DNA of 64,000 nt, taken from Actinomycetes bacterium (lineage in GTDB: Bacteria; Actinomycetota; Actinomycetes; Propionibacteriales; Nocardioidaceae). The notes under the pieces were generated by a model. That model made no database searches, was not told the origin of the DNA, and saw only the letters and a program-made list of their open reading frames with translations. This document shows positions 7,581-51,207 of this stretch, one piece after another; position 1 is the stretch's first letter, and every line of letters starts with the position of its first letter. Made by a program: the position numbers and the translations under genes. Where the stretch lies: the NCBI GenBank assembly GCA_023460975.1, contig JAEWOG010000090.1:47670-111669 (forward strand), in the 5' to 3' direction.

Positions 7581-10500
7581 TCAGCGCTGCCGACTCAGCA
7601 CCCACCGGTGCAGCCTTCGCCCCAGCCGACGCAGTTCGGGCGCGGTTCCTTCGGTGACCAGCGCTGCGTGGCCCATCCCGCGTGCTGCCAGCGACTGCGC
7701 GTACGCGCCCGGGTCGAGCGGGATCGGTTCGCCGCCGACCTCGGCCCTGGCCACGTCACGCACTTCGAGGACGGGCAGCAGCACCGGGATCACCAGCACC
7801 AGCGTGAGCGCGAACAGCACGGAGCCCACCAGGGCGACCCGGTGCCACCACTGCGCGTGCACGTCGAACGGATCCAGCAGGAGGACCAGCGCCAGGGCCA
7901 CGTACCCCGCCCCGTACACGATCGACCACCCCAGCACCACGCCCCGGCGATGGGTGAGCGACTGGAGACGCCACTCGATCGTGGTCTCCCCGTCCGGGCC
8001 TGCGGTCGTGATCGGCGCCAGTCGACGCATGGCGTTGCCGGCCCACCAGGCCAGCGCCGTCCCTGCTGCCAGCACTGCCACACAGACGCCGATCACAGTG
8101 GCCCACCGCAGGAGGCCCGCGACCGGCCACGCACGGAACTGCCCCACCCAGTCCACCTCCATGCACGCCACCACGACCGCGGCCACAGCCACGACACCAC
8201 CCAGCAGCAGGAGGAAGGGAGCCACGACAGCCGCGAGCGCCTGGGCCCAGCGCACCCCGGCGCGCCGCCCGCGCGGCACCTGGCGGACATCGGCCAACCG
8301 GTCGAGGGTCCACCACACCGACCCGTGTTCTGGGCCGATGCTGCCGAGCAGGACGAGGACGCCAGCCAGTGCCAGCACCACCAGCAAAGTGGTGCTGCCG
8401 CGCGCGGCAGCCTCGTCCTCCCACGTACGGGCCCGAATGACCGAGTAGGTCAGCAGCGGCAGGACCGGCGAGAGCAGGACGACGCCGTGCAGCAGGGACG
8501 AGGTGCGCAGAGCCGCCCACCCGAACGCGACCAGCACCGCGCTGGCCCCCATCGCCGCAGCGGGGGCGGAGAACGACTCCGGCAGGGCACCGAAGAGGGA
8601 CAGCGCCAGCAGGCTGGCTCCCACCGCCAGACCCAGCAACGACAATGAGCGGCCCACGCTCGAGCGCGCGGTCAACCCCATGACGACCCAGTACGGCAGG
8701 AGCAGGGCGCCTCGTGCGGCGCGGGTGAACCCGGAGAGCAGTTTCAGGCCCGAGGCCGGGCTCGCGAGCACGCTCGCGCCCACGGTCGCCGCGGTGGTCG
8801 CCGTACGGATCGTCAGGTCACCGCGGCTCTCCTCCCCCAGCGACTCCCTCCCGATGCCGGCGGCGTCGAACGCCTCCAACGCCCGGCGTCGCTCCGCGGG
8901 CACGAGGCTCGCGCCGTCTCGGCCCGCCTCCTCCAACCGCTCCAACAGCGACTCCTGCGCGGCGAGGAACACCTCTCCGTGCGAGCGCAGGTATCCGCCC
9001 TCGACATGGTCGGTGCGCACCGCGGCCGCGAGCACCGGCAACTCCTCGACCACCACCTGCTCATGCACCGCCGTGGCGAACAGGTCCGTGAGCGCCTCGA
9101 AGGCCGCCGGGAGTTGGCCGTCCTCCACCCGCGGGTCGAACACCTGCGCAAGCTCCTCGACGGCCTGTTCGCTCAGCCTGCTCAGGTCCTCTCCCGGCTC
9201 CCCGAACAGCGCGCCCAGCAACTCCTCCACGGTCTCCTGCGCCAGCTGATGCGCGGGACCAGACCCGAGGTAGCCGCTGTTGCGTGCCGCACGCCGCACT
9301 CGCGCGGGCTGCAGCACCGTGCGACACAGCACCGTCGCAGCGTCGACACGGCCCCAGGTCCAGTCGTTGGCGCGCCACGAGCGCTTGAGGAAGCCCCCGA
9401 AGCGGTGCAGGGACCACCCGCCCAGCTTCTCGTCGGCCGTGCGACTGTGGCGCGCGAACGCGTTGCGGGTCTGCGCCGAGAGTTGGACGAGCTCGACCGG
9501 GACGCTCGCACCGCTCGCTGCCTCGTCGCCGAGCACACTGGCCACGACTTCGAGGTGGAGCAGCCGCGACAGCACGGTGGCGGTGTCCAGGTCGGGTCCC
9601 AGACCGAGACCGTTGAACCAGTGATGCACGTGGCTGGCCGACTCCGGCCCCGAGCGCAGCGTCACCGACGACTCCGTACGCGGCCCCGCCGCCGCGACCG
9701 CTGAGACGACCTCGCCGGCAACCGCGGCCGCCAGTAGGCCCAACTGGCGGCCGACGGCGCCACCGGTCTCGGGAGCGGCCACCGTGAACCCTTCGACGGC
9801 CGCCGCGACGCTCACGAGGCGGCGCTCCACGCCCACCGCGACCTGGGCGCCGCGCTGGAACGCCGACTCCTCGTCGTCCGGATGTGCGCGGCGGCGACGA
9901 TCGCGTTCGGAGTCGGCCACCTTCGCGATCGCTGCGCGCACCCCGCTCCATGCGGTCTGTCCCGTCATCACGTAGTCGAACCACGCCAGGCGCAGGGTCC
10001 AGTACGTGCGCGTGGGGGCCAACGACCCGATCACGAGGTCGTCGCCGTCCCCCAGGTCCGTGCTCCACGCCTGGTCGACCTGGTGCCGGGTCGCCTCAAT
10101 GGAGTCACGCAGGTCGAACACGCGTCCGCGTGCTGCCGCGATCCTCGCGTAGTCCGCATCCATCGTGGCCGTGCTGGCCACGAGCTGCCGCAGCAGTTCG
10201 CACGCAGCCTCCGTGATGGCCAGCGCTCCGTGGACTCCCCACTCCCAGCCACTCCCGTGGGCCGTGTCCGGCTCGGAGGGTGCGTACGGCAGTGTTCCGT
10301 GGCTGCGCAGCCAGTCCTGCTGGGCAGCATCGGCTTCGCCGCGCACCCGCTCGACGCTCCACCCTGAGCCCAACGGGTCACTCGCCCCGGTGCTCGCGGC
10401 CCCCGCCGCGCGTGCGGAGAGGTCCCGGGCCGCACGCCACATCCGCAGTCGCTGGTAGTGCGGTGCCAGCTGGCCGGCCAGCGTCGCCAGGGCCGTCGGG

Positions 10501-11669
10501 GAGGTGTCGGCGAGGATGTCGCTGCGCGTGGCACGCCGACCGGCTGCCTTGCGGTTGTGCTCCCCGATCTCCTCCACGAACGTGCGAGCGCCCTGCCCCG
10601 TCAGGGCGCCGACGAGGTCCAGGACGGCGCCAGCCACCGTAGGTGGTTCCTCGGGGCGCGCAGCAGGCACCTCTCCCGGGGAAGGAGCGTGGGGGTAGAC
10701 CAGGAGCATCACCCGGCGCACCGGCCCGAGCGCCGGCATGGCTTCGACCGCCCGCAGGGCCGACACGGTGGGCGTGTTGGCCAGCACGCCACCGTCGACC
10801 ACGTACCGCGACGCCTCCACGCCGGGCACCAGCGTTCCCCAGTTCTCCACGACTCCCGCCATGTCCGGGCGCCCCTGGGCGGCGAGCTCGGAGCTCACCG
10901 GCACGAAGGCAGGCTCGAAGGCGATCGGGAAGCTCGCGGTCGCGCGCGCAGCCAGGGCGAGTTCCTCCACGGTGCTGGCCAGCCGGGTCGGGCCGAAGGC
11001 ATCCAAGCTCGCCGCCGTCCGGGGCATGCGCCGCCACCGGAACCTGCCCGCGTGCACCGTCTGCGGCAACAGCTCGCCCGTCGAGTCGCGCGCGATGCTC
11101 TGGTTGCCGCCCAGGACCGTGCACGTGATCGTCAGGTCCATCGGCGCGCGCTCGGGATCGACGGCCCCGTCGGCGGCCGCGAGCGTACGCATGGCCTCGC
11201 GGAGCGCAGGGAGGAAGTACTCATCACCCTGCAGCAAGGATCGCGGGTCGCCCTGGAAGGGCGAGCGCAAGAGCGCCTCCAACCGGCCGCGGCCGATCCA
11301 CAGGTCCCGCAGGATGCCCGGGTCGGCCTCCCGGGTGACCTGGGTCAGGGCGAGCGCGGCTCCGTTGATGCCCCCGGCCGACGTCCCCGCGATCACGTCG
11401 GCGCGCGCGGTGCCCCCGACCAACTCCAGCGCCACTGCGTACGGGTCGGGCCGGCTGGAGGGGCCCGATCGCTCACGTGCCTTGGTGAGGCGGTCCAACT
11501 CCCGGACCGTGCCACCCATCCAGACCGCCAGCGAGACCCCGCCGTTCAGGACCACCCCGAACCGGATCTCCTCCGGCGGCAACGACGCGCCTCGTACTGA
11601 GGTGAGAAGACCGACCACCGAGATCACCCCCTCCATCGAGGGTAGGCCGCGGCACACCGCCCTGGGCAC
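7581..11669 (-). CDS. Giant patatin-like phospholipase family protein (patatin N-terminal domain, DUF3376-like middle region, multi-TM C-terminal domain)
   Basis: Oxyanion-hole-like GVVLNGGVSLAVWMGG, nucleophile elbow GTSAGG and catalytic-Asp motif VVDGGVLANTP. The segment LGGWSLHRFGGFLKRSWRANDWTWGRVDAA resembles DUF3376. The last ~400 aa contain about 8-10 hydrophobic helices. The start is uncertain (GTG 11669 or ATG 11636). Confidence 0.8.
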   Translation of the reverse strand: MPRAVCRGLPSMEGVISVVGLLTSVRGASLPPEEIRFGVVLNGGVSLAVWMGGTVRELDRLTKARERSGPSSRPDPYAVALELVGGTARADVIAGTSAGGINGAALALTQVTREADPGILRDLWIGRGRLEALLRSPFQGDPRSLLQGDEYFLPALREAMRTLAAADGAVDPERAPMDLTITCTVLGGNQSIARDSTGELLPQTVHAGRFRWRRMPRTAASLDAFGPTRLASTVEELALAARATASFPIAFEPAFVPVSSELAAQGRPDMAGVVENWGTLVPGVEASRYVVDGGVLANTPTVSALRAVEAMPALGPVRRVMLLVYPHAPSPGEVPAARPEEPPTVAGAVLDLVGALTGQGARTFVEEIGEHNRKAAGRRATRSDILADTSPTALATLAGQLAPHYQRLRMWRAARDLSARAAGAASTGASDPLGSGWSVERVRGEADAAQQDWLRSHGTLPYAPSEPDTAHGSGWEWGVHGALAITEAACELLRQLVASTATMDADYARIAAARGRVFDLRDSIEATRHQVDQAWSTDLGDGDDLVIGSLAPTRTYWTLRLAWFDYVMTGQTAWSGVRAAIAKVADSERDRRRRAHPDDEESAFQRGAQVAVGVERRLVSVAAAVEGFTVAAPETGGAVGRQLGLLAAAVAGEVVSAVAAAGPRTESSVTLRSGPESASHVHHWFNGLGLGPDLDTATVLSRLLHLEVVASVLGDEAASGASVPVELVQLSAQTRNAFARHSRTADEKLGGWSLHRFGGFLKRSWRANDWTWGRVDAATVLCRTVLQPARVRRAARNSGYLGSGPAHQLAQETVEELLGALFGEPGEDLSRLSEQAVEELAQVFDPRVEDGQLPAAFEALTDLFATAVHEQVVVEELPVLAAAVRTDHVEGGYLRSHGEVFLAAQESLLERLEEAGRDGASLVPAERRRALEAFDAAGIGRESLGEESRGDLTIRTATTAATVGASVLASPASGLKLLSGFTRAARGALLLPYWVVMGLTARSSVGRSLSLLGLAVGASLLALSLFGALPESFSAPAAAMGASAVLVAFGWAALRTSSLLHGVVLLSPVLPLLTYSVIRARTWEDEAAARGSTTLLVVLALAGVLVLLGSIGPEHGSVWWTLDRLADVRQVPRGRRAGVRWAQALAAVVAPFLLLLGGVVAVAAVVVACMEVDWVGQFRAWPVAGLLRWATVIGVCVAVLAAGTALAWWAGNAMRRLAPITTAGPDGETTIEWRLQSLTHRRGVVLGWSIVYGAGYVALALVLLLDPFDVHAQWWHRVALVGSVLFALTLVLVIPVLLPVLEVRDVARAEVGGEPIPLDPGAYAQSLAARGMGHAALVTEGTAPELRRLGRRLHRWVLSRQR

Positions 11670-25885: not shown

Positions 25886-26635
25886 CTAGTCGAGGAGCCC
25901 CTCGTCGGCATCGCCTTCGGCCGCCTCCACCCCGGCTGAGTCCAACTCCGAGCGGACCACGGCGAAGGCCAGGCCGGATCCATATCCCTTGCGGGCAAGC
26001 ATCCCGGCCAACCGCCGGGTGGCAACTGTGCGGTCCAGGTTGCGCACGGAGCGCAGCTTCTTGCGCACCAGTTGGCGCGCAGCGGCCTCCTCGTCAGCCG
26101 GGTCGATCTCCGAGAGAGCCTCCTTGGCGACCTCATCATCGACGCCCTTGCGGCGCAGTTCCTGGGCCAGCGCTCGCCGCGCCAACCCCTTGCCGGGCTG
26201 GCGCGACGCGATCCACGCCTGGGCGAAGGCAGCGTCATCGATGAGGCCGACCTCGGTGAAGCGATCGAGGAGTTGTCGCGCCAGGTCCTCGGGTACGTCC
26301 TTCTTGGCCAGCTTGTCGGCCAACTCCTTGCGCGTGCACGCCCGACCAGTCAAGGCATCGAGCAGGATCTTGCGTGCCACTGCCTCCGGATCCGCCGGCG
26401 GGCTCAGCGCGGCGGTGTCCTCGGGAGGAGGGGAACCGGCGCCCGCACGTGAGCGCCGACGACCCCCGGGTGATCCCGCCGCGCGGGAGCCGCCAGAACG
26501 ACGACCTCCCGCCGATTGCCCCCGCGTCCGCGGCGCCTCGGGGTCAGGCGTGGGTCGGTCGTCGCCGACCCACGCCTGCACTCCCAGCGCGACGTCGCCC
26601 AGCCAGGCCGGGGCGGGACGCGGATCAGAAGTCAT
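25886..26635 (-). CDS. recX: Recombination regulator RecX
   Basis: ATG at 26635 overlaps the 3' end of recA by 11 nt, as in mycobacteria. It has three-helix repeat modules ([26 protein letters not shown]..., [13 protein letters not shown]..., [12 protein letters not shown]). Confidence 0.85.
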
Positions 26636-27674
26636 TGACCCCGATGGGCTCGTCCGACAGATCGTTCGGACCGTCCATCGTCGGCACAACGCCCAGCTTC
26701 TCGAGGATCTTCTTCTCGAGCTCGTTGGCCAGATCCGGGTTGTCGCGCAAGAAGCCGCGGGCGTTCTCCTTGCCCTGCCCCAGCTGATCGCCCTCGTAGG
26801 TGTACCAAGCACCCGCCTTGCGGATGAGACCCGCCTCGACGCCTACGTCGATCAGGCCTCCCTCGCGGCTGATGCCCTTGCCGTACATGATGTCGAACTC
26901 AGCCTGCTTGAACGGCGGAGCGACCTTGTTCTTGACGACCTTGACGCGGGTGCGGTTGCCGACCATGTCGGTGCCGTCCTTGAGCGTCTCGATGCGGCGC
27001 ACGTCGAGACGCACGGACGAGTAGAACTTGAGCGCACGACCACCGGTCGTGGTCTCGGGCGAGCCGAACATCACGCCGATCTTCTCGCGCAGCTGGTTGA
27101 TGAAGATGGCGGTTGTGCCCGCGTTGTTGAGCGCACCCGTCATCTTGCGCAGGGCCTGGCTCATCAGGCGGGCCTGGAGACCGACGTGGCTGTCCCCCAT
27201 CTCCCCTTCGATCTCGGCGCGGGGCACGAGCGCGGCGACGGAGTCGATGACGATCAGGTCCAGGGCTCCTGGGCGGATCAGCATGTCGGCGATCTCGAGG
27301 GCCTGCTCACCCGAGTCGGGCTGCGAAACCAGGAGCGCGTCGGTGTCGACTCCGAGAGCCTTGGCGTACTCGGGGTCGAGCGCGTGCTCAGCGTCGATGA
27401 AGGCGACGATGCCGCCGGCGGCCTGTGCGCTGGCGACCGCGTGGAGCGCGACCGTCGTCTTTCCGGAGGACTCCGGGCCGTAGATCTCCACCACACGACC
27501 CCGCGGCAGGCCACCCAGCCCCAGCGCGACGTCGAGGGCGATCGAACCGGTCGGGATCACCTCGAGGGGCGCGCGCGTCTCGTCGCCCAAGCGCATGACC
27601 GAACCCTTGCCGAACGACTTCTCGATGCTGGCGAGTGCGGCATCCAGTGCCTTCTCGCGGTCTCCACCTGCCAT
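26625..27674 (-). CDS. recA: Recombinase RecA (no intein)
   Basis: Canonical sequence throughout: [13 protein letters not shown]-like N-terminus, Walker [49 protein letters not shown]. Confidence 0.98.
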
Positions 27675-27739: not shown

Positions 27740-27807
27740 TCCCTGATCAGGATGTCGATCTGTGGAGAACGCCGGACTGCGTCGTACCTGTGGACAGGAG
27801 CCTATCC

Positions 27808-27821
27808 CGAACACTTGTTCG
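27808..27821. promoter_or_regulatory. LexA SOS box (Cheo-box type)
   Basis: CGAAC-ACTT-GTTCG within tcCCGAACACTTGTTCGAtc, compared with the actinobacterial consensus TCGAAC-N4-GTTCGA. It lies 134-147 nt upstream of recA. Confidence 0.75.
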
Positions 27822-27862
27822 ATCAGTGCTGGGGCTCGCGGCGTGTCGCAACCGAGCCAGAA

Positions 27863-29946: not shown

Positions 29947-31380
29947 TCAGGGGCGTTGGACGAGGTAGGTCGTCGTGCTCTCCACGTCGCCGCCCAGGAA
30001 CCCGTCCGCGCGCATCCGCTCGATCAGGTCCTGAAGCGAGCCGTCGGCCGACTCGTCGACTGCTCCCCCGCCCGAGACGTAGTGCGCCATCGAGTGGTTG
30101 CCCGCAATGTCGCGGGTGCCCTCGTCGAAGACGACGGTGACGCGACCCGGCTGGTCGGGGTTGCGCGCGCCGTCGAGCAGAGGCACGGCATCCCCCCGGT
30201 TCTCCAGGTGCAGGGCGTGGACGTCGTCAGGGAGCTGCGCCACCTGGGCCGTGGGCGACCCTGCTGTCACCACATGGCGCACCGTGAACTCCTGGCGGAA
30301 CTGGGGGTCAGCCGCCAGCGCGGCCGCCTCCATGCCGCCCTGGGAGTGTCCGACGAGCATGACCTGTTGCCCCCCGAGCCCGGCGTCCCGCATGGCCTGC
30401 GTGATTCCCTCGCCGTAGGAGGAGTCCAACCCACCGAGCACCTGATAGTTGGTGAGCATGTCGCGCGCGGAGCGGCCGCCCTCGGGGACAGGCGACATGT
30501 CATCGGTCCCCGGCAGGTAGACGATGTGGCGTCGCTCGCCATCCACGACGACTGTCTCGACCCTGATGGCACCCCTCATCGAGGGGTCGTCCGCGTCCAG
30601 GGCATTCGCAGCCGCGAGGCGCTCCATCAGCTCGCGTACGGTCGTGGCGCCGGCTTCCGCCCCGCTGGAACCCAGGCGCGTGACCTCCACGTCGGCCCGG
30701 TTGCCGAAGAGGTGGGCGAGCAGGCGCGCGGCATCTCCCGTCGTGGCCGAGCCGATCGGCCCGTCCCCTGAGTTGAGCCACCCCACGTTGCCCGGGACGA
30801 GACCGTCCACGAGGCCACCTCCAGCATTGGTGAGGTGCTCGACGAGCTCGGGGTGGTGGAGGACCACGTCGCCGAGCAGTTCCTCCAGTCGTGCGGCCGC
30901 CGCGTCTCGCTGGTCCGGACTCAGGCGTGCCCACAGACTCGCTCCTGCGAGCCCCAGCGCAAGCGGCACCACTGCGCCGGGCGGGGCCACGCCGGGAATC
31001 GGGGTCACCAGCAGCGATCCCAGGGCGTGGTCGAGGGCCTCGATGGCCGCTGCGGCCACGGCGTCGCTGGCCCGGAAGGCGTCCACGGTCGCCGAGATGA
31101 GCAGACCGTCGGCCGCCAGTCCCAGCGCACGCGGCACCAGGCCGTCCGCGCCCGTCGTGGCACCCAGCACGGCTTGCTCCGCACGTTGGAAGGTCGCGGG
31201 GCTCAGCACCGAGGACTCCATGAGGTCCGGGTCGAGCATCACAGCGGGCCCCAGTCGCGCCAGCGCAACGAAGGACTCCGACTCCGTGGCGTACGCCGCC
31301 GCGAGGGCGCTCATCTGGGCGTACCCAGCCACCACCCCGTGGCTGCCGCCCGTCACCGAGTCAATGGGCGGTGTGCTCAT
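29947..31380 (-). CDS. Protein with an Ala/Leu-rich helical N-terminal half and a C-terminal lipase-type alpha/beta-hydrolase domain
   Basis: ATG at 31380 (MSTPPIDS...) inside ORF 29947..31461; it overlaps the upstream gene stop (ATGA). Nucleophile elbow VMLVGHSQGGMEAAALA lies at about nt 30335-30360. Candidate acid and His residues are in ENRGDAVP and AGNHSMAHY. Confidence 0.65.
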   Translation of the reverse strand: MSTPPIDSVTGGSHGVVAGYAQMSALAAAYATESESFVALARLGPAVMLDPDLMESSVLSPATFQRAEQAVLGATTGADGLVPRALGLAADGLLISATVDAFRASDAVAAAAIEALDHALGSLLVTPIPGVAPPGAVVPLALGLAGASLWARLSPDQRDAAAARLEELLGDVVLHHPELVEHLTNAGGGLVDGLVPGNVGWLNSGDGPIGSATTGDAARLLAHLFGNRADVEVTRLGSSGAEAGATTVRELMERLAAANALDADDPSMRGAIRVETVVVDGERRHIVYLPGTDDMSPVPEGGRSARDMLTNYQVLGGLDSSYGEGITQAMRDAGLGGQQVMLVGHSQGGMEAAALAADPQFRQEFTVRHVVTAGSPTAQVAQLPDDVHALHLENRGDAVPLLDGARNPDQPGRVTVVFDEGTRDIAGNHSMAHYVSGGGAVDESADGSLQDLIERMRADGFLGGDVESTTTYLVQRP

Positions 31381-32255
31381 CGTGCCCCCGCCGGGGTCAG
31401 CAGAGCGAGGTGGCCGGCCAAGTCGGTGGGCCGGCAGCGGGTCAGCCGCACCGCCCGCCATCCGTCACGTACGGCCGGCTCCACGCAGCGCCACCCGTCC
31501 GGCAGGAGCACCCACTCCACGTCGCCGTACGCGACGTCCTCGCCCCGCCGGAGCACCCTGCGGGCGTGCAATCGTCCCACGGAAGCGCTCGCCAGAAGGA
31601 ACAACCACCGCGCCGCCACGAGCGCACCCACGACATCGAGCGCGGCCGCGCTGGGGCCACCAAGAACCGACTCGGCGCCGTCGCGGGCCAGCTCGTCGAT
31701 GAGGTGGGGCTGCCCGACTTCCACGGACCATCCGGCAGCCAACAGACACTCCCAGCCGACCTCGATGACGTCGGGGAGCGCCGCCACCTCGGCTGGCACC
31801 GACTGCTGCGCAGGAACCAGTGCGGCTCGCGTCAGCTCCATCCACCATCGCTGGGCTGGCAGCACGGCCCACTCGGTCGTGCAACCGTCAGCGCTCGAGG
31901 CAGCAACCACGGTGTCGCCGCCCAGGCGTTGCCGCGACGTGACCCGCGTCATCCGACCGCCCTGGCGCGCCAGCACCTCCACCTCCACCGCCTCGGCTGC
32001 CCCGTGCCACACCGACATCGCCTCGGCGGCCCCCGACGACAGCTGTCCGTCGACCATGAGCCCGAGCTCAGCCAGGGCGTCGTCCACCACCGAGGGCTGC
32101 GGCGCCTCGTCGGTGCAGGCATCGAGCCGCTCGGTCCAGTGCTGCCCCGTGGTTGCCGTCTCCCCCGCGCCTGTCGGCGGCACCGGGATGCCGGCGAGCT
32201 CATACAGGCGTTGCAGCTGCGCGGAGTCGAGCTGCACGCGCGTCACCCCACTCAT
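31377..32255 (-). CDS. Hypothetical protein, possibly an EspG-like chaperone
   Basis: ATG at 32255 (MSGVTRVQLDSAQLQRLYELAGIPVPP...) overlaps the upstream stop (ATGA). Its size (292 aa), its N-terminal ...L..L...LG.P.P pattern and its position between a WxG protein and a helical-N-terminus effector recall EspG. The product call is low confidence. Confidence 0.5.
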   Translation of the reverse strand: MSGVTRVQLDSAQLQRLYELAGIPVPPTGAGETATTGQHWTERLDACTDEAPQPSVVDDALAELGLMVDGQLSSGAAEAMSVWHGAAEAVEVEVLARQGGRMTRVTSRQRLGGDTVVAASSADGCTTEWAVLPAQRWWMELTRAALVPAQQSVPAEVAALPDVIEVGWECLLAAGWSVEVGQPHLIDELARDGAESVLGGPSAAALDVVGALVAARWLFLLASASVGRLHARRVLRRGEDVAYGDVEWVLLPDGWRCVEPAVRDGWRAVRLTRCRPTDLAGHLALLTPAGAR

Positions 32256-32704
32256 CGACGCGCCTGGGAGAGCGTGTCCGCAAAATCCAGCCAGTCGCGA
32301 TGCCCCGCCGGTGGTTCGCTGAAAGATGCCCACCATTCATCCGCACGCTCCGCACTCACCCCCACCGCCGCGACCAGACCCTCCGCCACGGCGGCCAACC
32401 GCGTCCTTGCGTCCGCCACGAGGCATCGGACTCGACGAGTGATCTCCTCGATGAGCTCCTTGAGGTCGTCCACGGCGTCCGCATGCGCGTGCAGGGTTGC
32501 GGCCGCCGCCTCGTGGGCGTCGGCGGTGCGCGCCAAGGCCCCGGCCCGCTGCCTCATCCGGTCCTGCATGGCGAGGGCGGCCCGCCCTTGCCACAGCACC
32601 TCCGCAGAGCTGCGCAGGAGCGCGTCGGCTCGCCTCCTGATCTCGTTGGCCTGGTCTGCGAGTCGTCGGGCGTGGGCCCTGATGACCGTGGTGTCTCCAT
32701 ACAT
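32252..32704 (-). CDS. Small all-helical WxG-motif protein (WXG100-like / T7SS-signal-like)
   Basis: ATG at 32704 (MYGDTTVIRAHARRLADQANEIRRRADALLRSSAEVLWQGRAALAMQDRM...) gives 150 aa. The WQG motif lies at nt 32585-32593 between predicted helices. A GGGGG RBS-like run lies upstream. Confidence 0.55.
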   Translation of the reverse strand: MYGDTTVIRAHARRLADQANEIRRRADALLRSSAEVLWQGRAALAMQDRMRQRAGALARTADAHEAAAATLHAHADAVDDLKELIEEITRRVRCLVADARTRLAAVAEGLVAAVGVSAERADEWWASFSEPPAGHRDWLDFADTLSQARR

Positions 32705-32868
32705 GGATGTGCCCCCGTCTGTGCTGTCGCCGTCCTTGGTGTCGCCGTCTGTGGCGTTGTCGTCCGATGCTCGCGAACCTCGCGTTGCCTGAGACGGGTC
32801 ACGAAGACTCTGTGGATGAGTGGGCGGGCCGCATCGGCTTGTGGACGGTTTCTGGCTTGCTCGTGCGG

Positions 32869-32890
32869 TGTCAGTGCCATCCGCAAGGAT
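32869..32890 (+). promoter_or_regulatory. RecA-NDp-like promoter motif positioned to give a leaderless lhr transcript
   Basis: gTGTCAGTG (32869-32876), N8 ccatccgc, then AAGGAT (32885-32890). The lhr GTG at 32897 lies 7 nt after the -10-like hexamer. The hexamer has one mismatch (A for T) to TAnnnT. Confidence 0.5.
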
Positions 32891-43001: not shown

Positions 43002-44936
43002 TCAGCGGACGACGAAGGTCGCCTGGCCACTCACACCGGGCTCCCCGACCGCGGATGCCTCACCACCGGCGAGGGCCACGGTGACGGAGCCGTCGCTGGA
43101 CTGCACCCGCACCGGAGGCGACGCCTTGAGGCTGTGCGACTCCCCGGCCGCGAGGCTGCCCTTGTAGACGATTTCGCCGGCGCCGTCGCGTACGACCACG
43201 TGGGCGCCACCGGTGGCCGCCACCACGTCGACACTGACGGGGTCGGCGGGCGCAGCCGCGGACCCGTTGGGCCCGCCCGACCCGTTCAGGACGGGAGTGG
43301 CGGGGCGCAGGTCGGCCGGACTGTCCATGACGAGCCGGACGATCGACCAGCACAGGACCACAGCCATCACGACTGCGACGAGGACGGACCAGTTCGGGCC
43401 CCCTCGAGTGCTCCGGATCGACCCGTTGACCCCGGTGGCGAGCTCGGCCTCGAACACACGCCGGGGGTTGATCGGCGCGTGCGCGTAGCGCTGGTCGTAC
43501 GTCGCCAGCAACTGCTCGCCGTCAACCCCCAGGACGCGGGCCAACGTGCGCAGATGACCGCGTGCGTAGAAGTCGCCACCGCAGGGCTCGAAGTCGTCGA
43601 CCTCGATGGAGGAGATCACGTGCGAACGGATTCGGGTGCGCTCGGCCAGCGCATCGACACTCAGGCCGAGGCGCGTACGTGCCGCCGCCAGTTCCGGCCC
43701 GATGACGGGGTCCTGGGCCGGCGCGACCTCGAAGTCGTCAAGGACCAACGGCTCGACGGCGTCTCCGGGGCGTGCGATCGGGCGCACCCGGTCGCCCCAC
43801 GCCTGGGTCTCCTCGACCAGATCGACGTGGCCGGGACTGCGCAGCGAGCGGCCCACCAGCGGGCTCGCATCGATGTCGTCCTCGGGCAGGTCGATCGTGA
43901 TCTCGTGCCGGCGCGCGCTGGTGAGCGCTCGGACGGGACTCGGCGCCCCCTGCTCGCGTGGCTCGTGAGCACCCTCGTCGCCGGAAAGCCCACCGACGTG
44001 CCACTCACGGGTCGCGTCGGGATCCTCATCGAGGGCCTCGTGCAGGTCGTCGGTGGCGAGGTCGGCGTCAGCCTCCCTCGTTCCGGCAGCCTCCTCGAGT
44101 CGCACGAGCCAGTGCGCGAGCCGGGCGCGCGCCGGGGCGTACCACGGGGCGCGCCCCTCGGCGGACTGACCTGCCTGCTCCTCCTGCGTGTCCTGCTGGT
44201 CCGCACGCTTCTCGTGGCCGTGGTCCTCGTGGCCCGACTGCACAGACTCGGCGGCCTGGGTGGACTTGGTGTCGGACTCAGGGGCGGACGGAACCTCCAG
44301 CACGGCAGTCGGCTCGACGTCGTCCGTGGACGACTCGTGGGTGGGCTCGATCTCCACCACCCGCGACGCATCGGGGGCGAGCCGGGCCAGCGCCTGACCG
44401 AGGTCGTCCCCAGCGCCGCGCAGCGTGGTCGTCACCCCCAGCGGCACAGCGAGGCCCGCACCGTGCAGCCGGCGCGAGAGGCGTACGTGGCGGCGCGCAG
44501 AGGCATCGAGTTCGGACTCGAAGCGTTCCTCGTTGTGCGGGACCACCACGAGGCGGGGGTCGGACCACGGCGAGCGGCGACGCTCGTGCTCGACGTGGTG
44601 CACGGCTCCCCACACCAGTCCGTGCCACGCGCGGCCCAGGCGGATGCGTACGCCGTGCTCGTCGGCGACCAGCAGCGGCGTGCGGGCGTCGACCAGAGCG
44701 ATCAGCCAGGCAGTGGCCAGCACCCCCAGACCCACGGCCAGCGCCCAGTCCCAGACGCTGCCCGACTGCGCGGCGCGTGCCAGGTAGGCGATCGCGACCC
44801 CAGCGCTCACCACACCGAGAGCGCCGGAGACGACCGGGTTGCGGCGCACCTCCACCGGCTCGGGAGCCAGCTCCAGCACGGTCGGCCCCTGATCCGGCGT
44901 CTGTTCGACCGTCAGTTCCTCTGCAGCACCCATCAC
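43002..44936 (-). CDS. RodZ-like HTH (XRE) membrane protein with a DUF4115-like C-terminus and an extra membrane-anchored N-terminal domain
   Basis: Central [31 protein letters not shown] (RodZ-type HTH), a single TM helix ([18 protein letters not shown]), and a C-terminal beta-rich [20 protein letters not shown]. The N-terminal 200 aa has 2 TM helices plus a PH-like segment. Its start overlaps the ftsK stop. Confidence 0.7.
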
Positions 44937-47545
44937 GCTCCCCCTTCCAACGTGGCGATCACCGAGTCGAGTTCGTCTGGCTTGACCAGCACGTCACGAG
45001 CCTTGGAACCCTCGCTGGGGCCCACGACCCCGCGACTTTCCATGATGTCCATCAGTCGTCCCGCCTTGGCGAAGCCGACCCGCAGCTTGCGCTGCAGCAT
45101 CGACGTCGACCCGAACTGGGTCGACACCACGAGCTCGATGGCCTGGACGACCAGGTCGAGGTCGTCACCGATGTCGTCGTCGAGGTCGCGCTTGGACGCC
45201 GCGGGCGCCGTGACCTCCTCGACGTAGGTGGGCTCCAACTGCTCCTTGCACGCAGCCACGACCTGGGCGATCTCGCCCTCGCCGACCCATGACCCCTGGA
45301 CGCGGATCGGCTTGGACGCCCCCATCGGCAGGAACAGGCCGTCACCCTGACCCACCAGCTTCTCGGCGCCGGGCTGGTCGAGGATGACTCGGCTGTCGGC
45401 GAGCGAGCTGGTGGCGAACGCCAGTCGCGAGGGCACGTTGGCCTTGATCAGACCGGTCACCACGTCCACCGACGGACGCTGCGTCGCGAGCACCAGGTGG
45501 ATGCCGGCCGCGCGGGCCAGCTGCGTGATGCGCACGACCGCGTCCTCGACGTCGCGCGGGGCGACCATCATGAGGTCCGCGAGCTCGTCGACGACGACCA
45601 GCAGGTACGGGTACGGCGACAGCACCCGCTCGCTGCCCGGCGGCACCTCGACGGTCCCGGCACGCACGGCCTTGTTGAAGTCGTCGACGTGACGGAACCC
45701 GAAGTTGGCCAGGTCGTCGTAGCGCATGTCCATCTCGCGCACGACCCACTGCAGGGCCTCGGCAGCCTTCTTGGGGTTGGTGATGATCGGGGTGATCAGG
45801 TGCGGGATGCCCTCGTACGCGTTGAGCTCCACGCGCTTGGGGTCGACCATGATCATGCGGACCTCGTCGGGCGTCGAGCGCATCAGCAGCGACGTGATCA
45901 TCGAGTTGATGAACGACGACTTTCCGGAGCCCGTCGCGCCGGCCACCAGCAGGTGCGGCATCTTCGCCAGGTTGGCGACCACGAAGCCGCCCTCGACGTC
46001 CTTGCCGACACCCGTGACCATCGGGTGGTGGTTGTTGCGCGCCACCGGGGAGCGCAACACGTCACCCAGGGTCACGATCTCCTTGTCGACGTTGGGGATC
46101 TCGACGCCGACCGCGGACTTGCCCGGGATCGGCGACAGGATCCGCACGTCGGCGGAGGCGACCGCGTAGGCGATGTTCTTCTGGATGTTGGTGATCTTCT
46201 CGACCTTCACACCCGGCCCGAGCTCGACCTCGTAGCGCGTCACGGTCGGGCCGCGCGTGTATCCGGTGACCGCCGCGTCGATGTTGAACTCGTCGAGCAC
46301 CTGGGTGAGTCGGTCGACCACGTTGTCGCTGGCGGCCGACTTGGGCTTGTGGGGCGAACCCGCCTTGAGCACGTCGCTGCCGGGCAGTGAGTAGGTGACA
46401 TCACCGGAGAGGGCCAGCTGCTCCACGCGCTGCGGAAGGTCGGCGTGCGGCGGAGGAACCAGGTCCTCGGGGGCCGCGGACGCCGAGTCCTGCGCCGGTG
46501 GCGTGATCTCGGTCGGGGCGTCCGCGAACAGGTCGATGCCGACGTCGCCGGTGTCCTCAGCGGCCGAGTCTGCGTCGAGCTCCATCGCCACGTCGAGGGC
46601 GTCGCGCTTGCGACCGCGTCGCTTCTTCGGCTCCTCGGCCACGAGCGCGGAGTCGTACGCCGGGTCTCCGAGATCGGGGTCCAGCTCGCCCGAACGGCGC
46701 CGGCGAGTGGCACCCTCCTCATCCTCGGCCGGCGCCCGGCCGGTCACGGAGTCGGTGAGCGCATGCAGCTTGGCGGGAATCTGGTAGAGCGGCGTCGCCG
46801 TGATGATCAGGACACCGAAGAACGACAGGAGCCCCAGCAGCGGCACGACCACGTACGGCGTGCGGAACAGGTCGAGAAGCAGGCTCGAGACCATGTAGCC
46901 CACCGCTCCCCCGGCATCGCGCAGCGCAGTGGTGTCCCCCGGCGTCGGCTGAGGGCTGCCGTTGGCCACGTGAACGATCCCCAGCAGCCCGAGGCCGAAG
47001 GCGCCCCAGCCGATGAGTTGACGTCCGAGGGGACCGTTGTGGATCGGGTCCCGCATCGTCCGCCATCCGGCGTAGACGAGGAAGAGCGGCACGAGCCACC
47101 CCACCTTGCCCACGACGCCCTGGCTCACCTGGCGCATGAACTCCATGACACCGCCGGGCAACTGCCACCAGACCGCACCGGCCACGACCACCGCGAGGCC
47201 GATGAGCAGCAGACCGGCCCCGTCGCGGCGGTGCTCCGGGTCGAGGTCACGCGCCGAGCGACCGATGGATCGCACGAGCGACCCCACACCGTGGGCGAAC
47301 CCCATCCACGCAGTCACGAGCAGCCGCCCCAGCGCGGTGAACAGGCGCGAGACCGGGCCGGGCCCGTTGCGCACTGCTCGGGGCGCGGGACGGTTCGCCG
47401 GGCGCTTGGCCGGCGTTCGTGAGGAGGAACGGGTGCTGGTACTCCGCGATCGGGTGCTCGAACTCTTCGATCCACCTCGCGAGGAGGTGGACTTGGACGT
47501 GTTCGAACTCCGCGACCTCGGCGGGGAAGACGTACGGGTCGCCAT
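44933..47545 (-). CDS. ftsK: DNA translocase FtsK
   Basis: Four N-terminal TM helices, a Pro/Asp-rich linker, a single motor domain (Walker [16 protein letters not shown]), and a C-terminal gamma winged helix ([24 protein letters not shown]). Confidence 0.95.
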
Positions 47546-47700
47546 GGTCTCGACCCTAAGGGAGAGTCACACCAGCCCCACGGACCACACGCGAGCGTGT
47601 CGCAGAGACCTCCACGACGGCAATAGATTCTCCGGAGGGTGTTCCCAACAGCCGAATGTTCTCCCTAAGGTGAACCAGATCACCTCCAATTCGGGCGGAG

Positions 47701-50700
47701 GTGGAACTCTTGGGAGACAGTGTGAAGAACCTCAGCAGAGGACTCGCGCTCGCTGTGATCGGAGCCGGCCTCGCTGCCGTCCCGTTCGCGGCGGTGCCCG
47801 CGTCCGCGGCCCCTTCGACACCGGACGGTCGGGCTGCGATGTCCGCCGCCGCCGAAGGCAAGGTCGATTTCGCAACCAACCCGGCCACTGGCCGAGTGGC
47901 ATTCGCCCGCGCCAGGGCCGGCGGCGACCTCATGTCGGCGCAGCAGGCGCAGGGCCGATCCGGCGCGATCACGAAGTCGCGTACCTATCTGGACCGCTTC
48001 GCGGGCAACTTCGGCGCACGCGCTGGCGAACTGCGCCAGTCCGAGGTGTTCGCCGACGACACCGGCTGGACCGTCACGTACACGCAGACCTTCCAGGGCG
48101 TGCCCGTCTTCGGGGCCGAGCTCAAGGCGCACGTCGACCGCGACGGCGACCTCACCTCGGTCAACGGCTACGCGGCACCGGGGCTGAACCTGTCGGTCAC
48201 CCCGCGCGTCACGAAGGCTGAGGCCAGCACGCGCGCGTTGGGCGCCGTGAAGGCCAAGCCCGCCGGATACGAGGACGGCCTGCCCGCGGCAGCGAAGAGG
48301 GGTCTGGAGGTCCGCTCCGCCGACCTCACCGTCTACCGCATGGGCTCCACCCGCGGCATCACCGGCGAGGCCAAGCTCGCCTGGGCCGTGGAGGTGTGGA
48401 ACAAGTCGACGATCCGCGAGTTCCTGATCCTCGACGCCGCGACGGGCAAGCCGCTCAACCGCTGGTCGATGATGGCTCACGCACTCGACCGCGAGCTGTA
48501 CGAGGCCTACCGCGACGACAACGGCACCCCGGACAACCCGGACGATGACTTCGTCGGCGGCCTCGACACCCCGGTGTGGAGCGAAGGCGATGCGTTCCCG
48601 GGCCAGCTCGACGAGGACCAGCAGAACGAGGTCCTCGCCACCGGCGAGTCGTACTGGATGTTCAAGAACACCTTCGGCTACGACTCGTGGGACGGTGCCG
48701 GCACCACGATGATCACCGTCAACAACGACCCGCGCATCGCGTGCCCGAACGCCAACTGGAACGGCGTCACGACCAACTACTGCTCCGGCGTCACCGGCGA
48801 CGACACCGTGGCGCACGAGTGGGGCCACGCCTACACCGAGTCGACCTCCGGCCTGATCTACCAGTGGCAGGCGGGTGCGATGAACGAGGCTTACTCCGAC
48901 ATCTGGGGTGAGACCGTCGACATGCTCAACAGCCGTCACAACGAGGGAGGCGAGACGGAGGCGGCGCCGGTGTACCGCACCCCGGGGGCCTGCTCAGTCG
49001 ACCAGCCCGCCCCGTACGACCTAACGGTCTCGATCACGGCACCGGCAGAGATCGCCGGCGAGTGCAACGCGGCCACCGGATTCGGCCCGGACTTGCCCAA
49101 CGGTGAGATCACGGCAGAGGTCATCGTCGCCACCGACGACGCGGCGAGCGGCAGCACGACCGACGGCTGCACGCCGTTCACCAACGCTGCGGCGATCGCG
49201 AACAAGTGGGCCTATGTAGACCGGGGCGCCTGCTCCTTCCAGGACAAGGCGGACAACGCCACCGCCGCCGGAGCCCAGGGCCTGATCGTCGGCAACAACA
49301 CCGGCACCGCGCCTCCCGGCATGGCGGGCGACGGCACGATCTACACGCTCGGCGTGAGCATGGCCGACGGCACCCGGATCAAGTCCGTGGACGGTCCCAC
49401 CACCATGTCGATCCTGCGTGACGAGTCGCGCTACACCGACGACACCTACCGCTGGCTTTCCGGCGAGTCGGACCCCGCGTTCGGTGGCGCCATCCGCGAC
49501 CTGTGGAACCCGAACTGCTACGGCGACCCGGGCAAGGTGTCCGACGCTGAATACCACTGCGGCGCCGACGACTCCGGCGGTGTCCACACCAACTCCGGTG
49601 TGGTCAACCGTGCGTTCGCCATGCTGGTGGACGGCATGGACGGGCAGGGCACGGGCATCGGCCTCGACAAGGCTGCCAACCTGTTCTGGCACACCCAGGT
49701 CAACTACCTGACGCCGACGTCGTACTTCCCCGACCTGGCCAACGGCCTCGAGGCCAGCTGCCAGCAGCTGACGGGCGTGGACATCAACAAGGTCACCCTC
49801 GGCAACCCGTCCGAGGCGGATGGCTCCGACGGGGCTGCGGTGCCGGAGACCATCTCCGGCGGCCTGACCGCGGCAGACTGCGGCAAGCTCGCCGACGTCA
49901 TCGCCGACGTCGAGCTGCGCATGGACCCGACCGAGCAGTGCGAGTGGGTGCCGCTGCTGGCGCCCGGTGCTCCCGGCCTGGACTGCGGGACGGGGACCGA
50001 GGAGTCGGTCTCCTACTCGGAGGACTTCGAGGACGGTCTGGACGGGTGGACCCAGGACGAGGAGCTCGGCTTCGACTTCTCCGAGGGAATCGCTTGGGAG
50101 CCATCCACGGCGGCACCCGGCGGCCACGCGGGTGGGGTGGCCTTTGGCCCCGACCCGGTCGCGGGCGTGTGTGGTGACGTCGGTGACCTGACGAGTCGCA
50201 ACGGACTCATCAGCCCGGCCATCACGGTGCCGTCCGGCACCTCGGCGCGCATGCAGTTCGACCACTACGTGGCCACCGAGGCCACGTGGGACGGTGGCAA
50301 CGTCAAGATCGCGGTCAACGGCGGCGACTTCGAGCTCGTTCCCGCCTCGGCGTTCCTCCACAACGCCCCCGCCGGAACGATGGACCCCGACTCCGGTCCC
50401 ATGGGCGGCCAGCCCGCGTGGACCGGATCCGACGGCGGAGAGATGACGGGCTCGTGGGGCACCAGCGTGATCGATCTGGCTGCTGCGGGAGCCAACGCCG
50501 GAGACTCCATCCAGGTGCGCTTCGACATGGCGCGCGACGGCTGCAACGGACTCGACGGCTGGTACGTCGACAACGTCAAGGTCTCCTCGTGCACCGACGT
50601 CGTGGCAGACGTGGCCACCAAGACCACCGCTGTCCACGTTCCGGAGCCGTCCACGTACGGCACCACGTCGAAGGTGGAGGTGACCGTCGCCCGTGATGGT

Positions 50701-51207
50701 TCCTCCGGCGCTGCACCGACCGGTGTGGTCGAGCTCGTCGATTCGACGGGGGCGAAGGTCGCCACCGGGACGCTGGCGAATGGCAAGGCCACCTTGGTCC
50801 TGCCGGCAACGCTGCCAGTGGGCGCACACGCGATGACCGCCAAGTACCTGGGTGGCAACGGCTTCGCCGCCAGCCAGGTGGCACTGACCGTGACCGTGAC
50901 GGCCCCGGGCGAGGAGATCACCTCCACGACGAAGGTGAAGATCACGCCGAAGGCACCCAAGGCCCACAAGAAGTTCAAGATCAAGGTGAAGGTCAAGGCC
51001 TCCGACGGCTCCAAGCTCACCGAGGGCACGGTCGTCGTCCGCATCGACGGAAAGGTCGTCGGCAAGGGCACGGTCAAGAACGGCAAGCTCACCATCACCC
51101 TCAAGAAGGGGCTGAAGGCGGGCAAGCACAAGCTCGTGGCGAAGTACAAGGGGACCTCGACGGTCCAAGGCAGCAAGGCCACGATGAAGTTCAAGGTCCG
51201 TCGCTGA
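47701..51207 (+). CDS. Secreted M4 (thermolysin-family) metalloprotease with propeptide, inserted PA domain and C-terminal Ig-like domains
   Basis: Signal peptide ...AVPASAAP. Zinc motif VAHEWGHAYTE plus the third ligand region GAMNEAYSDIWGE. PA-like insert (WAYVDRGACSFQDKADNATAAGAQGLIV). Two Ig-like repeats, the last Lys-rich and ending KFKVRR. The start is GTG 47701, TTG 47710 or GTG 47722. Confidence 0.85.
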   Translation: MELLGDSVKNLSRGLALAVIGAGLAAVPFAAVPASAAPSTPDGRAAMSAAAEGKVDFATNPATGRVAFARARAGGDLMSAQQAQGRSGAITKSRTYLDRFAGNFGARAGELRQSEVFADDTGWTVTYTQTFQGVPVFGAELKAHVDRDGDLTSVNGYAAPGLNLSVTPRVTKAEASTRALGAVKAKPAGYEDGLPAAAKRGLEVRSADLTVYRMGSTRGITGEAKLAWAVEVWNKSTIREFLILDAATGKPLNRWSMMAHALDRELYEAYRDDNGTPDNPDDDFVGGLDTPVWSEGDAFPGQLDEDQQNEVLATGESYWMFKNTFGYDSWDGAGTTMITVNNDPRIACPNANWNGVTTNYCSGVTGDDTVAHEWGHAYTESTSGLIYQWQAGAMNEAYSDIWGETVDMLNSRHNEGGETEAAPVYRTPGACSVDQPAPYDLTVSITAPAEIAGECNAATGFGPDLPNGEITAEVIVATDDAASGSTTDGCTPFTNAAAIANKWAYVDRGACSFQDKADNATAAGAQGLIVGNNTGTAPPGMAGDGTIYTLGVSMADGTRIKSVDGPTTMSILRDESRYTDDTYRWLSGESDPAFGGAIRDLWNPNCYGDPGKVSDAEYHCGADDSGGVHTNSGVVNRAFAMLVDGMDGQGTGIGLDKAANLFWHTQVNYLTPTSYFPDLANGLEASCQQLTGVDINKVTLGNPSEADGSDGAAVPETISGGLTAADCGKLADVIADVELRMDPTEQCEWVPLLAPGAPGLDCGTGTEESVSYSEDFEDGLDGWTQDEELGFDFSEGIAWEPSTAAPGGHAGGVAFGPDPVAGVCGDVGDLTSRNGLISPAITVPSGTSARMQFDHYVATEATWDGGNVKIAVNGGDFELVPASAFLHNAPAGTMDPDSGPMGGQPAWTGSDGGEMTGSWGTSVIDLAAAGANAGDSIQVRFDMARDGCNGLDGWYVDNVKVSSCTDVVADVATKTTAVHVPEPSTYGTTSKVEVTVARDGSSGAAPTGVVELVDSTGAKVATGTLANGKATLVLPATLPVGAHAMTAKYLGGNGFAASQVALTVTVTAPGEEITSTTKVKITPKAPKAHKKFKIKVKVKASDGSKLTEGTVVVRIDGKVVGKGTVKNGKLTITLKKGLKAGKHKLVAKYKGTSTVQGSKATMKFKVRR

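Follow-up and report, generated by a model that had tools for sequence, protein, structure and literature searches.

A recA-linked cassette encoding a WXG-type protein, an EspG-fold protein and a putative lipase in a Nocardioidaceae genome: a candidate substrate set for type VII secretion

Gene content of the cassette

The DNA analyzed here is a stretch of 64,000 nucleotides from contig JAEWOG010000090.1 (assembly GCA_023460975.1, Nocardioidaceae), hereafter called the window. Between lhr and recA it carries three minus-strand genes, g1, g2 and g3 (Table 1), that appear to specify a substrate set of a type VII secretion system (T7SS): a small WXG-type partner protein, a protein with the fold of the EspG chaperones and a hydrolase preceded by a long helical region. 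An earlier note on this DNA had described the three genes as joined by ATGA stop/start overlaps, and both coordinates and sequence agree with that description. The two junctions are 4-bp overlaps, the third-position GC content of g2 and g3 (0.84-0.86) matches that of the adjacent genes, and in all three frames the N-termini of homologs match the starts in the window. Gene calls made independently on further assemblies of this organism yield the same products of 150, 292 and 477 amino acids, and the cassette of N. alpinus shows the same architecture with the same 4-bp overlaps. The overlaps favor translational coupling and co-expression of g1-g2-g3, as the note had proposed; the stoichiometric expression that it also read from them goes beyond what can be drawn from a DNA sequence and was not retained.

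The WQG motif of g1 is located at residues 38-40 (32585-32593) and, like the GHSQGG motif of g3, lies where it had been claimed. Fifty homologs of g1 were detectable, almost all of them from Nocardioides. In their alignment the MYGDT start is conserved, W38 and G40 of the WxG turn between two helices are invariant, as are P131, G134, W138 and L139, and the C-terminal tail is conserved and Pro-rich (F-x-PP-x-GH-x-DWL). With its 150 residues, an extra third-helix region and this tail, g1 is unlike a helical hairpin of about 100 residues. Based on profile searches, the window protein matches Pfam T7SS_signal (PF21725; E 2e-4, 21.7 bits, cutoff 27) over positions 70-146 of the 241-position profile, Pfam WXG100 (PF06013; E 0.023, 15.4 bits, cutoff 27.3) and NCBIfam WXG100_ESAT6 (TIGR03930; E 7.6e-4, 19.6 bits, cutoff 44.85), each time below threshold. 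Among the 50 homologs, 45 match PF21725 at E<0.01 (best 2.1e-7), and matches were also found to WXG100 (14 homologs), PPE (11, only at E >= 3.8e-4), EspA_EspE (9) and WXG100_2 (7). A precomputed PF21725 assignment exists for 21 of the 50, and NCBI annotates one homolog as a 'WXG100 family type VII secretion target'. When the g1 profile was compared by hhalign with profiles of canonical EsxA/B proteins from Nocardioides-type eccC loci, the WxG motifs aligned in register but the match was weak. Because of the family matches and the shared register, and of the weak Esx alignment, g1 is judged from its sequence to be a distant WXG100/T7SS_signal-type protein and not a canonical 100-residue Esx protein. 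The WXG-like, T7SS-signal pattern that the note had seen in g1 is thereby borne out at the level of the family, the window protein itself remaining sub-threshold.

The product of g2 has no Pfam or NCBIfam match of its own. A word-seeded search returned only three relatives, so that AlphaFold2 (AF2) was given a 4-sequence alignment. The resulting model (predicted local distance difference test, pLDDT, 79.3; predicted template-modelling score, pTM, 0.73) shows two similar halves, each with a helix, a four-strand sheet and a helix. In a Foldseek search of the PDB all 18 top matches were EspG1, EspG3 or EspG5 chains (probability 1.0, E 2e-11 to 1.5e-7, template-modelling score (TM) 0.45-0.69), the next match having a TM of about 0.1, and the model superposes on EspG3 and EspG5, including chains from PE-PPE-EspG complexes. 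A profile search of 1.84 billion representative proteins brought 189 relatives of g2. Pfam ESX-1_EspG (PF14011) is matched by 11 of the 54 near-full-length remote ones (best E 9.7e-10) and is the only Pfam family matched among them; against PDB sequences the family profile found EspG3 only, and weakly. Since the top PDB matches are all EspG and remote relatives match PF14011, g2 is, on its modeled structure and its distant homologs, a divergent EspG-fold protein, which agrees with the earlier view of g2 as EspG-like.

The 365 homologs of g3 come nearly all from Nocardioides, are full length and 40-66% identical, the nearest relative being 66% identical. An AF2 model built with 35 sequences (pLDDT 86.4, pTM 0.84) shows a strand at residues 6-11, helices from 16 to 225, including a 45-residue helix at 81-125 and helices at 137-175, and beyond about residue 225 an alpha/beta-hydrolase domain. 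The long helical N-terminal half and the lipase-class hydrolase with its GHSQGG elbow, both predicted by the earlier note, are thus present in the model. Pfam PGAP1 (PF07819) is matched above its gathering cutoff (26.5 bits against 24.3), the match spanning residues 326-398 only. Of 35 aligned homologs, all match PGAP1 and Abhydrolase_1, 13 match Lipase_3 and 7 weakly match Abhydrolase_8. The oxyanion strand reads VYLPGTDD; Ser346, Asp397, Asp403 and His429 are invariant in the 35 homologs, and Ser and His are retained in 73 of 73 first-copy members of the family. Foldseek with the whole model returned weak, generic alpha/beta-hydrolase neighbors only, among them phospholipase A1 (2yij, E 1.8e-3), Bacillus LipA, monoacylglycerol lipase (MGL) and the RedJ thioesterase, with a weak match to 9cys, a lipase effector of a type VI secretion system (T6SS; E 0.015); phmmer against the PDB found nothing. 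The C-terminal half of g3 is, by its motifs, a serine alpha/beta hydrolase of PGAP1/class-3-lipase type, most likely a lipase, phospholipase or esterase.

The N-terminal half of g3 has no Pfam match in 35 members, no sequence match in the PDB with a 52-sequence profile and no similarity to g1. Homology of the g3 N-terminus to the PE/PPE or LXG proteins, with whose layout the earlier note had drawn a parallel, is thus not supported, and its membership in PE, PPE (PF00823) or LXG was rejected for lack of Pfam and PDB sequence matches; the parallel with these proteins would be one of function. Within this half lies a hydrophobic segment, residues 121-165, part of which (127-145) has low pLDDT. 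The 19-residue Kyte-Doolittle maximum of the window protein is 1.58 at residue 140, and across the family the median is 1.7 (range 1.07-2.22). From sequence and model together, the segment is a candidate for a chaperone-shielded tip or for a membrane-interacting segment. If it were a transmembrane helix or hairpin, g3 could be a membrane-anchored or intracellular hydrolase acting on the producer's own membrane, with g1 and g2 as assembly or regulatory partners and no T7SS involved. The family-wide hydrophobicity, reaching 2.2, and the compact two-part fold of the AF2 model would suit this explanation, but the window segment is Pro/Gly-rich and its 1.58 is marginal for a transmembrane helix, and EspG folds and T7SS_signal/WXG-type proteins are so far known solely as T7SS components (PMC11217815).

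The cassette promoter and leader are presumed to lie in the divergent g1/lhr intergenic region. No sigma-70-like site was found there, the promoter and terminator scan being uninformative, and no LexA box was found between g1 and lhr. Control by the SOS response through the divergent lhr promoter was discarded, as the sole good LexA-box-like site is a palindrome (CCGAACACTTGTTCGA) at 27807-27822, upstream of recA (26625-27674, minus strand). Just ahead of the g1 start codon (32704), positions 32709-32765 hold a 27-nt direct repeat in three overlapping copies with 15-nt spacing. On the coding strand the repeat units (ACAGACGGCGACACC-like) are similar to the first 15 nt of g1 (ATGTATGGAGACACC), and they could be a slippage duplication of the g1 start region or a regulatory array.

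Table 1. Features of the cassette in the window, and examples of related genes in other loci (L numbers denote those loci)
Feature	Position	Strand	Description
g1	32252-32704	minus	150-aa helical WXG100/T7SS_signal-like partner protein
g2	31377-32255	minus	292-aa EspG-fold protein, predicted cassette-specific T7SS chaperone
g3	29947-31380	minus	477-aa two-part protein, predicted secreted effector
g1/g2 ATGA stop/start overlap	32252-32255	minus	reads cgtcgATGAgtggg
g2/g3 ATGA stop/start overlap	31377-31380	minus	reads cacgATGAgcaca
g3 residues 1-228	30697-31380	minus	short N-terminal strand, then helical region; no known family
g3 residues 121-165	30886-31020	minus	hydrophobic segment, Pro/Gly-rich, between the two longest helices
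g3 residues 229-477	29950-30696	minus	PGAP1-like/lipase-class alpha/beta hydrolase domain
GHSQGG nucleophile elbow, Ser346	30334-30351	minus	g3 residues 344-349
g1/lhr divergent intergenic region	32705-32880		presumed site of cassette promoter and leader
Lipoprotein gene after g3 (examples)	L011:11422-12273, L008:11422-11889, L014:11445-12281, L009:11443-11883		orthologous loci
Second-copy g3 paralog (examples)	L024:11541-14225, L030:14053-15624, L041:12664-14070, L063:12374-14377		also in 22 other loci

Conservation of the cassette and of a fourth gene

A scan of one genome per species yielded 79 loci, whose open reading frames (ORFs) were searched by profile. The named loci belong to Nocardioides, Nocardioidaceae or Propionibacteriales and the others to metagenome-assembled genomes of uncultured Actinomycetota. 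Every evaluable g3 homolog (99/99) has g1 at most 1.4 kb upstream on the same strand, and g2 lies between the two in 78 of the 99 cassettes. Eighteen cassettes lack g2 and have g1 directly abutting g3, mostly with a 4-bp overlap, and about 8 of these 18 adjoin a g2-containing cassette; in the other 3 a gap of 550-930 bp separates g1 and g3 with no match to g2. Therefore, g1 and g3 form an obligate pair, to which g2 is a common but dispensable addition, and the triad, whose conservation as a unit in related genomes was checked at the suggestion of the earlier note, is indeed conserved in this form. The hydropathy of the g3 segment is nearly the same in cassettes without and with g2 (median 1.68 vs 1.71).

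The window copy belongs to an orthologous group of 51-55% identity with the same neighborhood, in which the gene order lhr, cassette, DinB_2, DUF3046, MFS transporter, recA is shared. Since this neighborhood is kept in other species, the recA-linked position of the cassette is old and stable and not the result of a recent insertion. The RecA protein of the window falls in a 90% cluster with those of Nocardioides spp., which places the genome with Nocardioides.

Of about 21 orthologous loci linked to recA, 15 have a further gene after g3, in most cases overlapping it by 4 bp. It encodes a lipoprotein with a signal peptide, a lipobox Cys and one or two copies of a domain of about 110 residues (pattern GCGxC...SPTN...VWRS...WGPRP) that belongs to no Pfam family; an ABC transporter lies downstream of it. 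The lipoprotein is a candidate immunity protein, inhibitor or foldase. Neither lipoprotein nor ABC transporter follows g3 in the window, where g3 ends at 29947 and DinB_2 begins at 29900. A search with the lipoprotein profile across the whole 64 kb gave no match and hence no relocated copy, which agrees with the earlier remark that no obvious immunity gene is present. The lipoprotein is missing from the window and from at least 6 retrieved orthologous loci with the catalytic triad intact.

The lack of any other immunity candidate in the window raises the alternative that g2 is itself a cytoplasmic immunity or inhibitor protein of the g3 hydrolase and not an export chaperone. The gene is directly upstream of g3 and translationally coupled to it, and it evolves faster than g1 and g3 (36-45% identity vs 53-66% for g3), as immunity proteins often do. 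We regard this alternative as very improbable, because the fold of g2 is specifically that of EspG and its remote relatives are Pfam EspG members, because g2 is missing from the 18 cassettes mentioned above even though their g3 is catalytically intact, and because the orthologous loci hold a separate candidate in the lipoprotein.

Type VII secretion loci in relatives

As the earlier note had already remarked of EccC, EccD and mycosin, none of these genes is visible in the 64 kb among the ORFs scanned; the remaining large ORFs scanned are ordinary housekeeping genes and no second cassette was found within the window. Three large genes of the window can be recorded here. A 1362-aa ORF at 7581-11669 (minus strand) was considered as EccC and rejected, as it has Patatin and DUF3376 domains; with its N-terminal patatin-like phospholipase it is a second large lipid hydrolase of the window, unrelated to the cassette. 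An 878-aa ORF at 44933-47566, outside the profile scan, resembles FtsK by size and position only. A 1177-aa ORF at 47674-51207 (plus strand) encodes a thermolysin-type (M4) metalloprotease with FTP propeptide, PA, MAM-like and Big_3_5 domains.

In many distant loci (about 40% identity) a gene of 1326-1344 aa with three FtsK/SpoIIIE domains is followed, after a few kb, by one or two cassettes. This FtsK/SpoIIIE-type protein was used as a query; close relatives proved frequent among metagenome contigs, where the scan confirmed 537 stretches, and 80 metagenome loci were fetched. Cassettes were found 4-8 kb downstream of eccC in 9 of these 80 loci, the share of loci that reach far enough downstream being uncounted. 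NCBIfam profiles identified the 1326-aa gene as fused EccCa and EccCb (958 and 876 bits). Among the divergent genes upstream of eccC they detected EccD (106 bits, cutoff 95), EccB just under its cutoff (150.5 bits, cutoff 154), a mycosin below cutoff (E 2e-43) and two WXG100 genes (EsxA/B) above cutoff. Because EccC, EccD, EccB, mycosin and WXG100 genes occur together in the loci of relatives, the clade has, by these profile matches, a complete system of the actinobacterial type (T7SSa), and paralogs of the cassette are physically linked to its locus. The earlier description of the genes as an orphan T7SS substrate set consequently stands as far as position is concerned and fails for the system as a whole, given that relatives carry a T7SSa locus with paralogous cassettes beside it.

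These loci bear on two other explanations. One is that the window cassette is a T7SS-derived set that is no longer exported, the T7SS having been lost or the cassette uncoupled from it, and that it survives as a hydrolase complex in the cytoplasm or at the membrane, or is decaying. Such a history would account for the failure to see ecc, mycP or esx genes in the 64 kb, for the missing lipoprotein and ABC transporter genes of most orthologous loci, with DinB_2 now directly after g3, and for a closest g3 relative of just 66% identity. We find it improbable, since the three ORFs are intact and retain their invariant residues, among them the WxG and the Ser-Asp-His of the active site, both 4-bp couplings persist, the lhr-recA position has been held in other species and relatives of EccC are common in the metagenome contigs. 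The other is the membrane-anchored hydrolase considered above. A housekeeping, vertically inherited neighborhood and the lack of an immunity gene here would be in keeping with it, but the clustering of paralogous cassettes beside eccC speaks against it, and we hold it to be no likelier than a cassette cut off from export.

Where two cassettes stand in tandem at an eccC-linked locus, all 26 g3 paralogs of the second cassette are without the nucleophile Ser (GSAQG, GLAQG or GGGPG instead of GHSQG) and 24 of the 26 are without the His, and they keep their own g1 and g2 genes. From these substitutions the second-copy paralog looks like a secreted pseudo-enzyme. That a catalytically dead paralog keeps its own g2 is a further point against g2 as an immunity protein.

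Other genes recur at the eccC loci. A divergently transcribed gene of about 460 aa adjoins eccC (L090:8535-9917 and L103:8517-9905, both minus strand); its product, which has an EccD-like, ubiquitin-like N-terminus and no NCBIfam match, may provide the Nocardioides-type T7SSa locus with another EccD-like component, divergent in sequence. The interval from eccC to the cassettes holds recurring genes that are not classical for a T7SS (L042:4708-7120, L063:5472-7208, L103:14188-16635). Pfam confirms among them a HerA-like ATPase (HerA_C, E 1e-185), along with a VapB-like protein of 97 aa and a LytR_C protein; a membrane protein of about 500 aa was judged from sequence only.

A proposed export complex and its relation to known systems

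We propose that the cassette encodes a hydrolase effector of a T7SSa together with its partner protein and an EspG-like chaperone dedicated to it, a reading to which we give a probability of about 70%. The g1-g2-g3 operon would then specify a single substrate complex for an actinobacterial T7SSa. We infer that the three products bind one another physically: g1 would pair with the long helices of g3 to form a helical bundle recognized by the T7SS ATPases, and its conserved C-terminal tail would be the likely docking signal. Meanwhile g2 would hold the cytoplasmic complex in a soluble state fit for export, probably by masking residues 121-165 of g3, much as EspG does with the hydrophobic tip of PPE proteins. 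The complex would be handed for export to an EccC encoded elsewhere in the genome, which presupposes a T7SS in the source organism, and the exported g3, as a PGAP1-like serine hydrolase, would act on a lipid or ester outside the cytoplasm.

Several observations weigh against this proposal. The window g1 falls under every curated Pfam and NCBIfam threshold, and the alignment of its family profile with canonical Esx profiles has an E value of only 0.017. The g2 model comes from a 4-sequence alignment, with one of five models confident and the other four at pLDDT 50-62. The AF2 model makes g3 one compact unit (pTM 0.84) with an N-terminal strand ahead of the helices, which does not look like the freestanding rod usual in LXG or PPE proteins. 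No T7SS-substrate family, whether PPE, LXG or another, is matched by the g3 N-terminus in Pfam or the PDB, and a canonical YxxxD/E motif was looked for by eye only and not found in g3. No T7SS core gene (ecc, mycP, esx) was found among the ORFs scanned in the 64-kb window. The 18 of 99 cassettes without g2 still keep the hydrophobic segment, so that the proposed g2 binding site receives neither support nor refutation from the correlation. Finally, the window has no immunity candidate and the g3 hydrolase domain is conserved and not polymorphic, both of which are a poor fit to a classical antibacterial toxin.

By analogy with the Eat/Tap loci described below, g3 could be an antibacterial toxin for which the lipoprotein of the orthologs provides immunity; that lipoprotein, together with what is reported of PGAP1-type Tle4 phospholipases of T6SS, favors this role. 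It could instead be a conserved exo-enzyme serving the producer's own envelope or lipid scavenging, a role favored by vertical inheritance, by the non-polymorphic payload and by the loss of the lipoprotein with the catalytic triad intact.

The closest parallel in locus architecture is found in the T7SSa 'Eat' toxin loci. According to Benedict et al. 2026 (PMC13444075), these are ESX-4-dependent, antibacterial loci of Mycobacteriales and other Actinomycetota, scattered at discrete sites away from the ESX locus. As set out there, one or two small Tap partner genes precede an effector of 400-1000 aa whose N-terminus is helical and elongated and whose C-terminus is an enzyme domain, alpha/beta hydrolases being the commonest payloads, and a downstream gene encodes an immunity protein, which is a lipoprotein if the target is extracellular (PMC13444075). 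The cassette has in common with them the partner gene upstream (g1, in 99 of 99 evaluable loci), the helical N-terminus and C-terminal enzyme of g3, the alpha/beta-hydrolase payload, a genomic site apart from the secretion locus and, in orthologous loci, the lipoprotein after the effector, so that by analogy its four-gene ancestral form fits the Eat description with an EspG-fold gene added. It differs in having one partner gene and not two, in the window copy being without a downstream immunity candidate and in a payload that is conserved across the genus and not polymorphic. It also differs in its host, a member of the Nocardioidaceae without a mycolate envelope. The EspG-fold gene built into the cassette is a further difference, none being mentioned for Eat loci in the text consulted (PMC13444075). 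The likeness to Eat/Tap is drawn from the architecture of the locus.

PE-PPE pairs carry the WxG motif on the PPE protein, whereas in the cassette it is on the small partner g1. PE/PPE proteins with lipase domains include LipY. T7SS substrates are helical bundles of a large protein with small partners; PE-PPE pairs have a hydrophobic tip, which EspG binds and shields, and EspG also guides each pair to its own system (PMC11217815; PMC12478183). The cassette resembles PE-PPE-EspG in combining a small partner of helical structure with a larger helical protein able to carry an enzyme domain and with an EspG chaperone as the third part; it differs in that the g3 N-terminus is without detectable PPE similarity and in that EspG genes normally lie inside ESX loci, whereas g2 is inside a substrate cassette which, in the window, is far from any ecc gene, eccC-linked paralogs being 4-8 kb away. 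The EsaE protein of S. aureus has an EspG fold and serves the EsaD toxin (PMC11217815; PMC12478183), and there too a toxin with a helical targeting domain is accompanied by small WXG-like partners and a dedicated EspG-fold chaperone. Export of lipases by a T7SS is likewise known for TslA, a reverse lipase with its helical domain at the C-terminus, unlike g3. EsaD, LXG-Lap and TslA all belong to the T7SSb of Bacillota and have cognate immunity genes, unlike the cassette described here, and g3 has no LXG Pfam match.

Two more groups of hydrolases invite comparison. PF21725 is usually N-terminal in the DUF1023/Abhydrolase_8 proteins of actinobacteria. The partial PF21725 match of g1 and the weak Abhydrolase_8 matches in 7 of the 35 g3 homologs recall these proteins, but the cassette encodes its signal-like protein and its hydrolase separately, on either side of an EspG gene. 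The T6SS phospholipases of the Tle4 type, work on which is attributed to Russell and co-workers in 2013, are said to have a PGAP1-like domain and to be neutralized by periplasmic Tli immunity lipoproteins. They share with g3 a PGAP1-like GxSxG hydrolase as a (here predicted) exported effector and, in the orthologous loci, an adjoining lipoprotein; they belong to another secretion system and another phylum, and the sole link found is the weak Foldseek match to 9cys. A literature search found no paper on a Nocardioides T7SS.

The cassette is well supported as an uncharacterized example of a known arrangement, a T7SS effector with helical partner and chaperone as in Eat/Tap, PE-PPE-EspG and EsaD-EsaE, and it does not overturn current understanding. 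What sets it apart is an EspG-fold gene inside the cassette, conservation throughout the genus at the recA position, the lack of an immunity candidate in the window and, in eccC-linked tandems, the dead second-copy paralogs. A broader proposal, which we put forward tentatively and think rather unlikely to hold as a whole, is that EspG chaperones extend beyond the PE/PPE proteins of mycolate bacteria. A cassette-encoded EspG of Nocardioidaceae would escort a WXG-partnered PGAP1-like lipase or phospholipase with a possibly membrane-inserting segment, and eccC-linked tandem loci would pair an active enzyme with a secreted dead paralog. Under this proposal the recA-linked copy, being vertically inherited, non-polymorphic and immunity-less, would point to a physiological T7SSa role, envelope-lipid remodelling or scavenging, and not to warfare.

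Little work has been devoted to the T7SSa beyond mycobacteria; Eat/Tap, the first antibacterial toxin loci described for it, date only from 2026. For annotation, three proteins called 'hypothetical' or 'PGAP1-like' could be renamed as a T7SS substrate set. The cassette offers a simple system for asking whether EspG serves non-PE/PPE substrates and what EspG recognizes, and it bears on whether the T7SS-exported lipases of soil actinobacteria are weapons or housekeeping enzymes.

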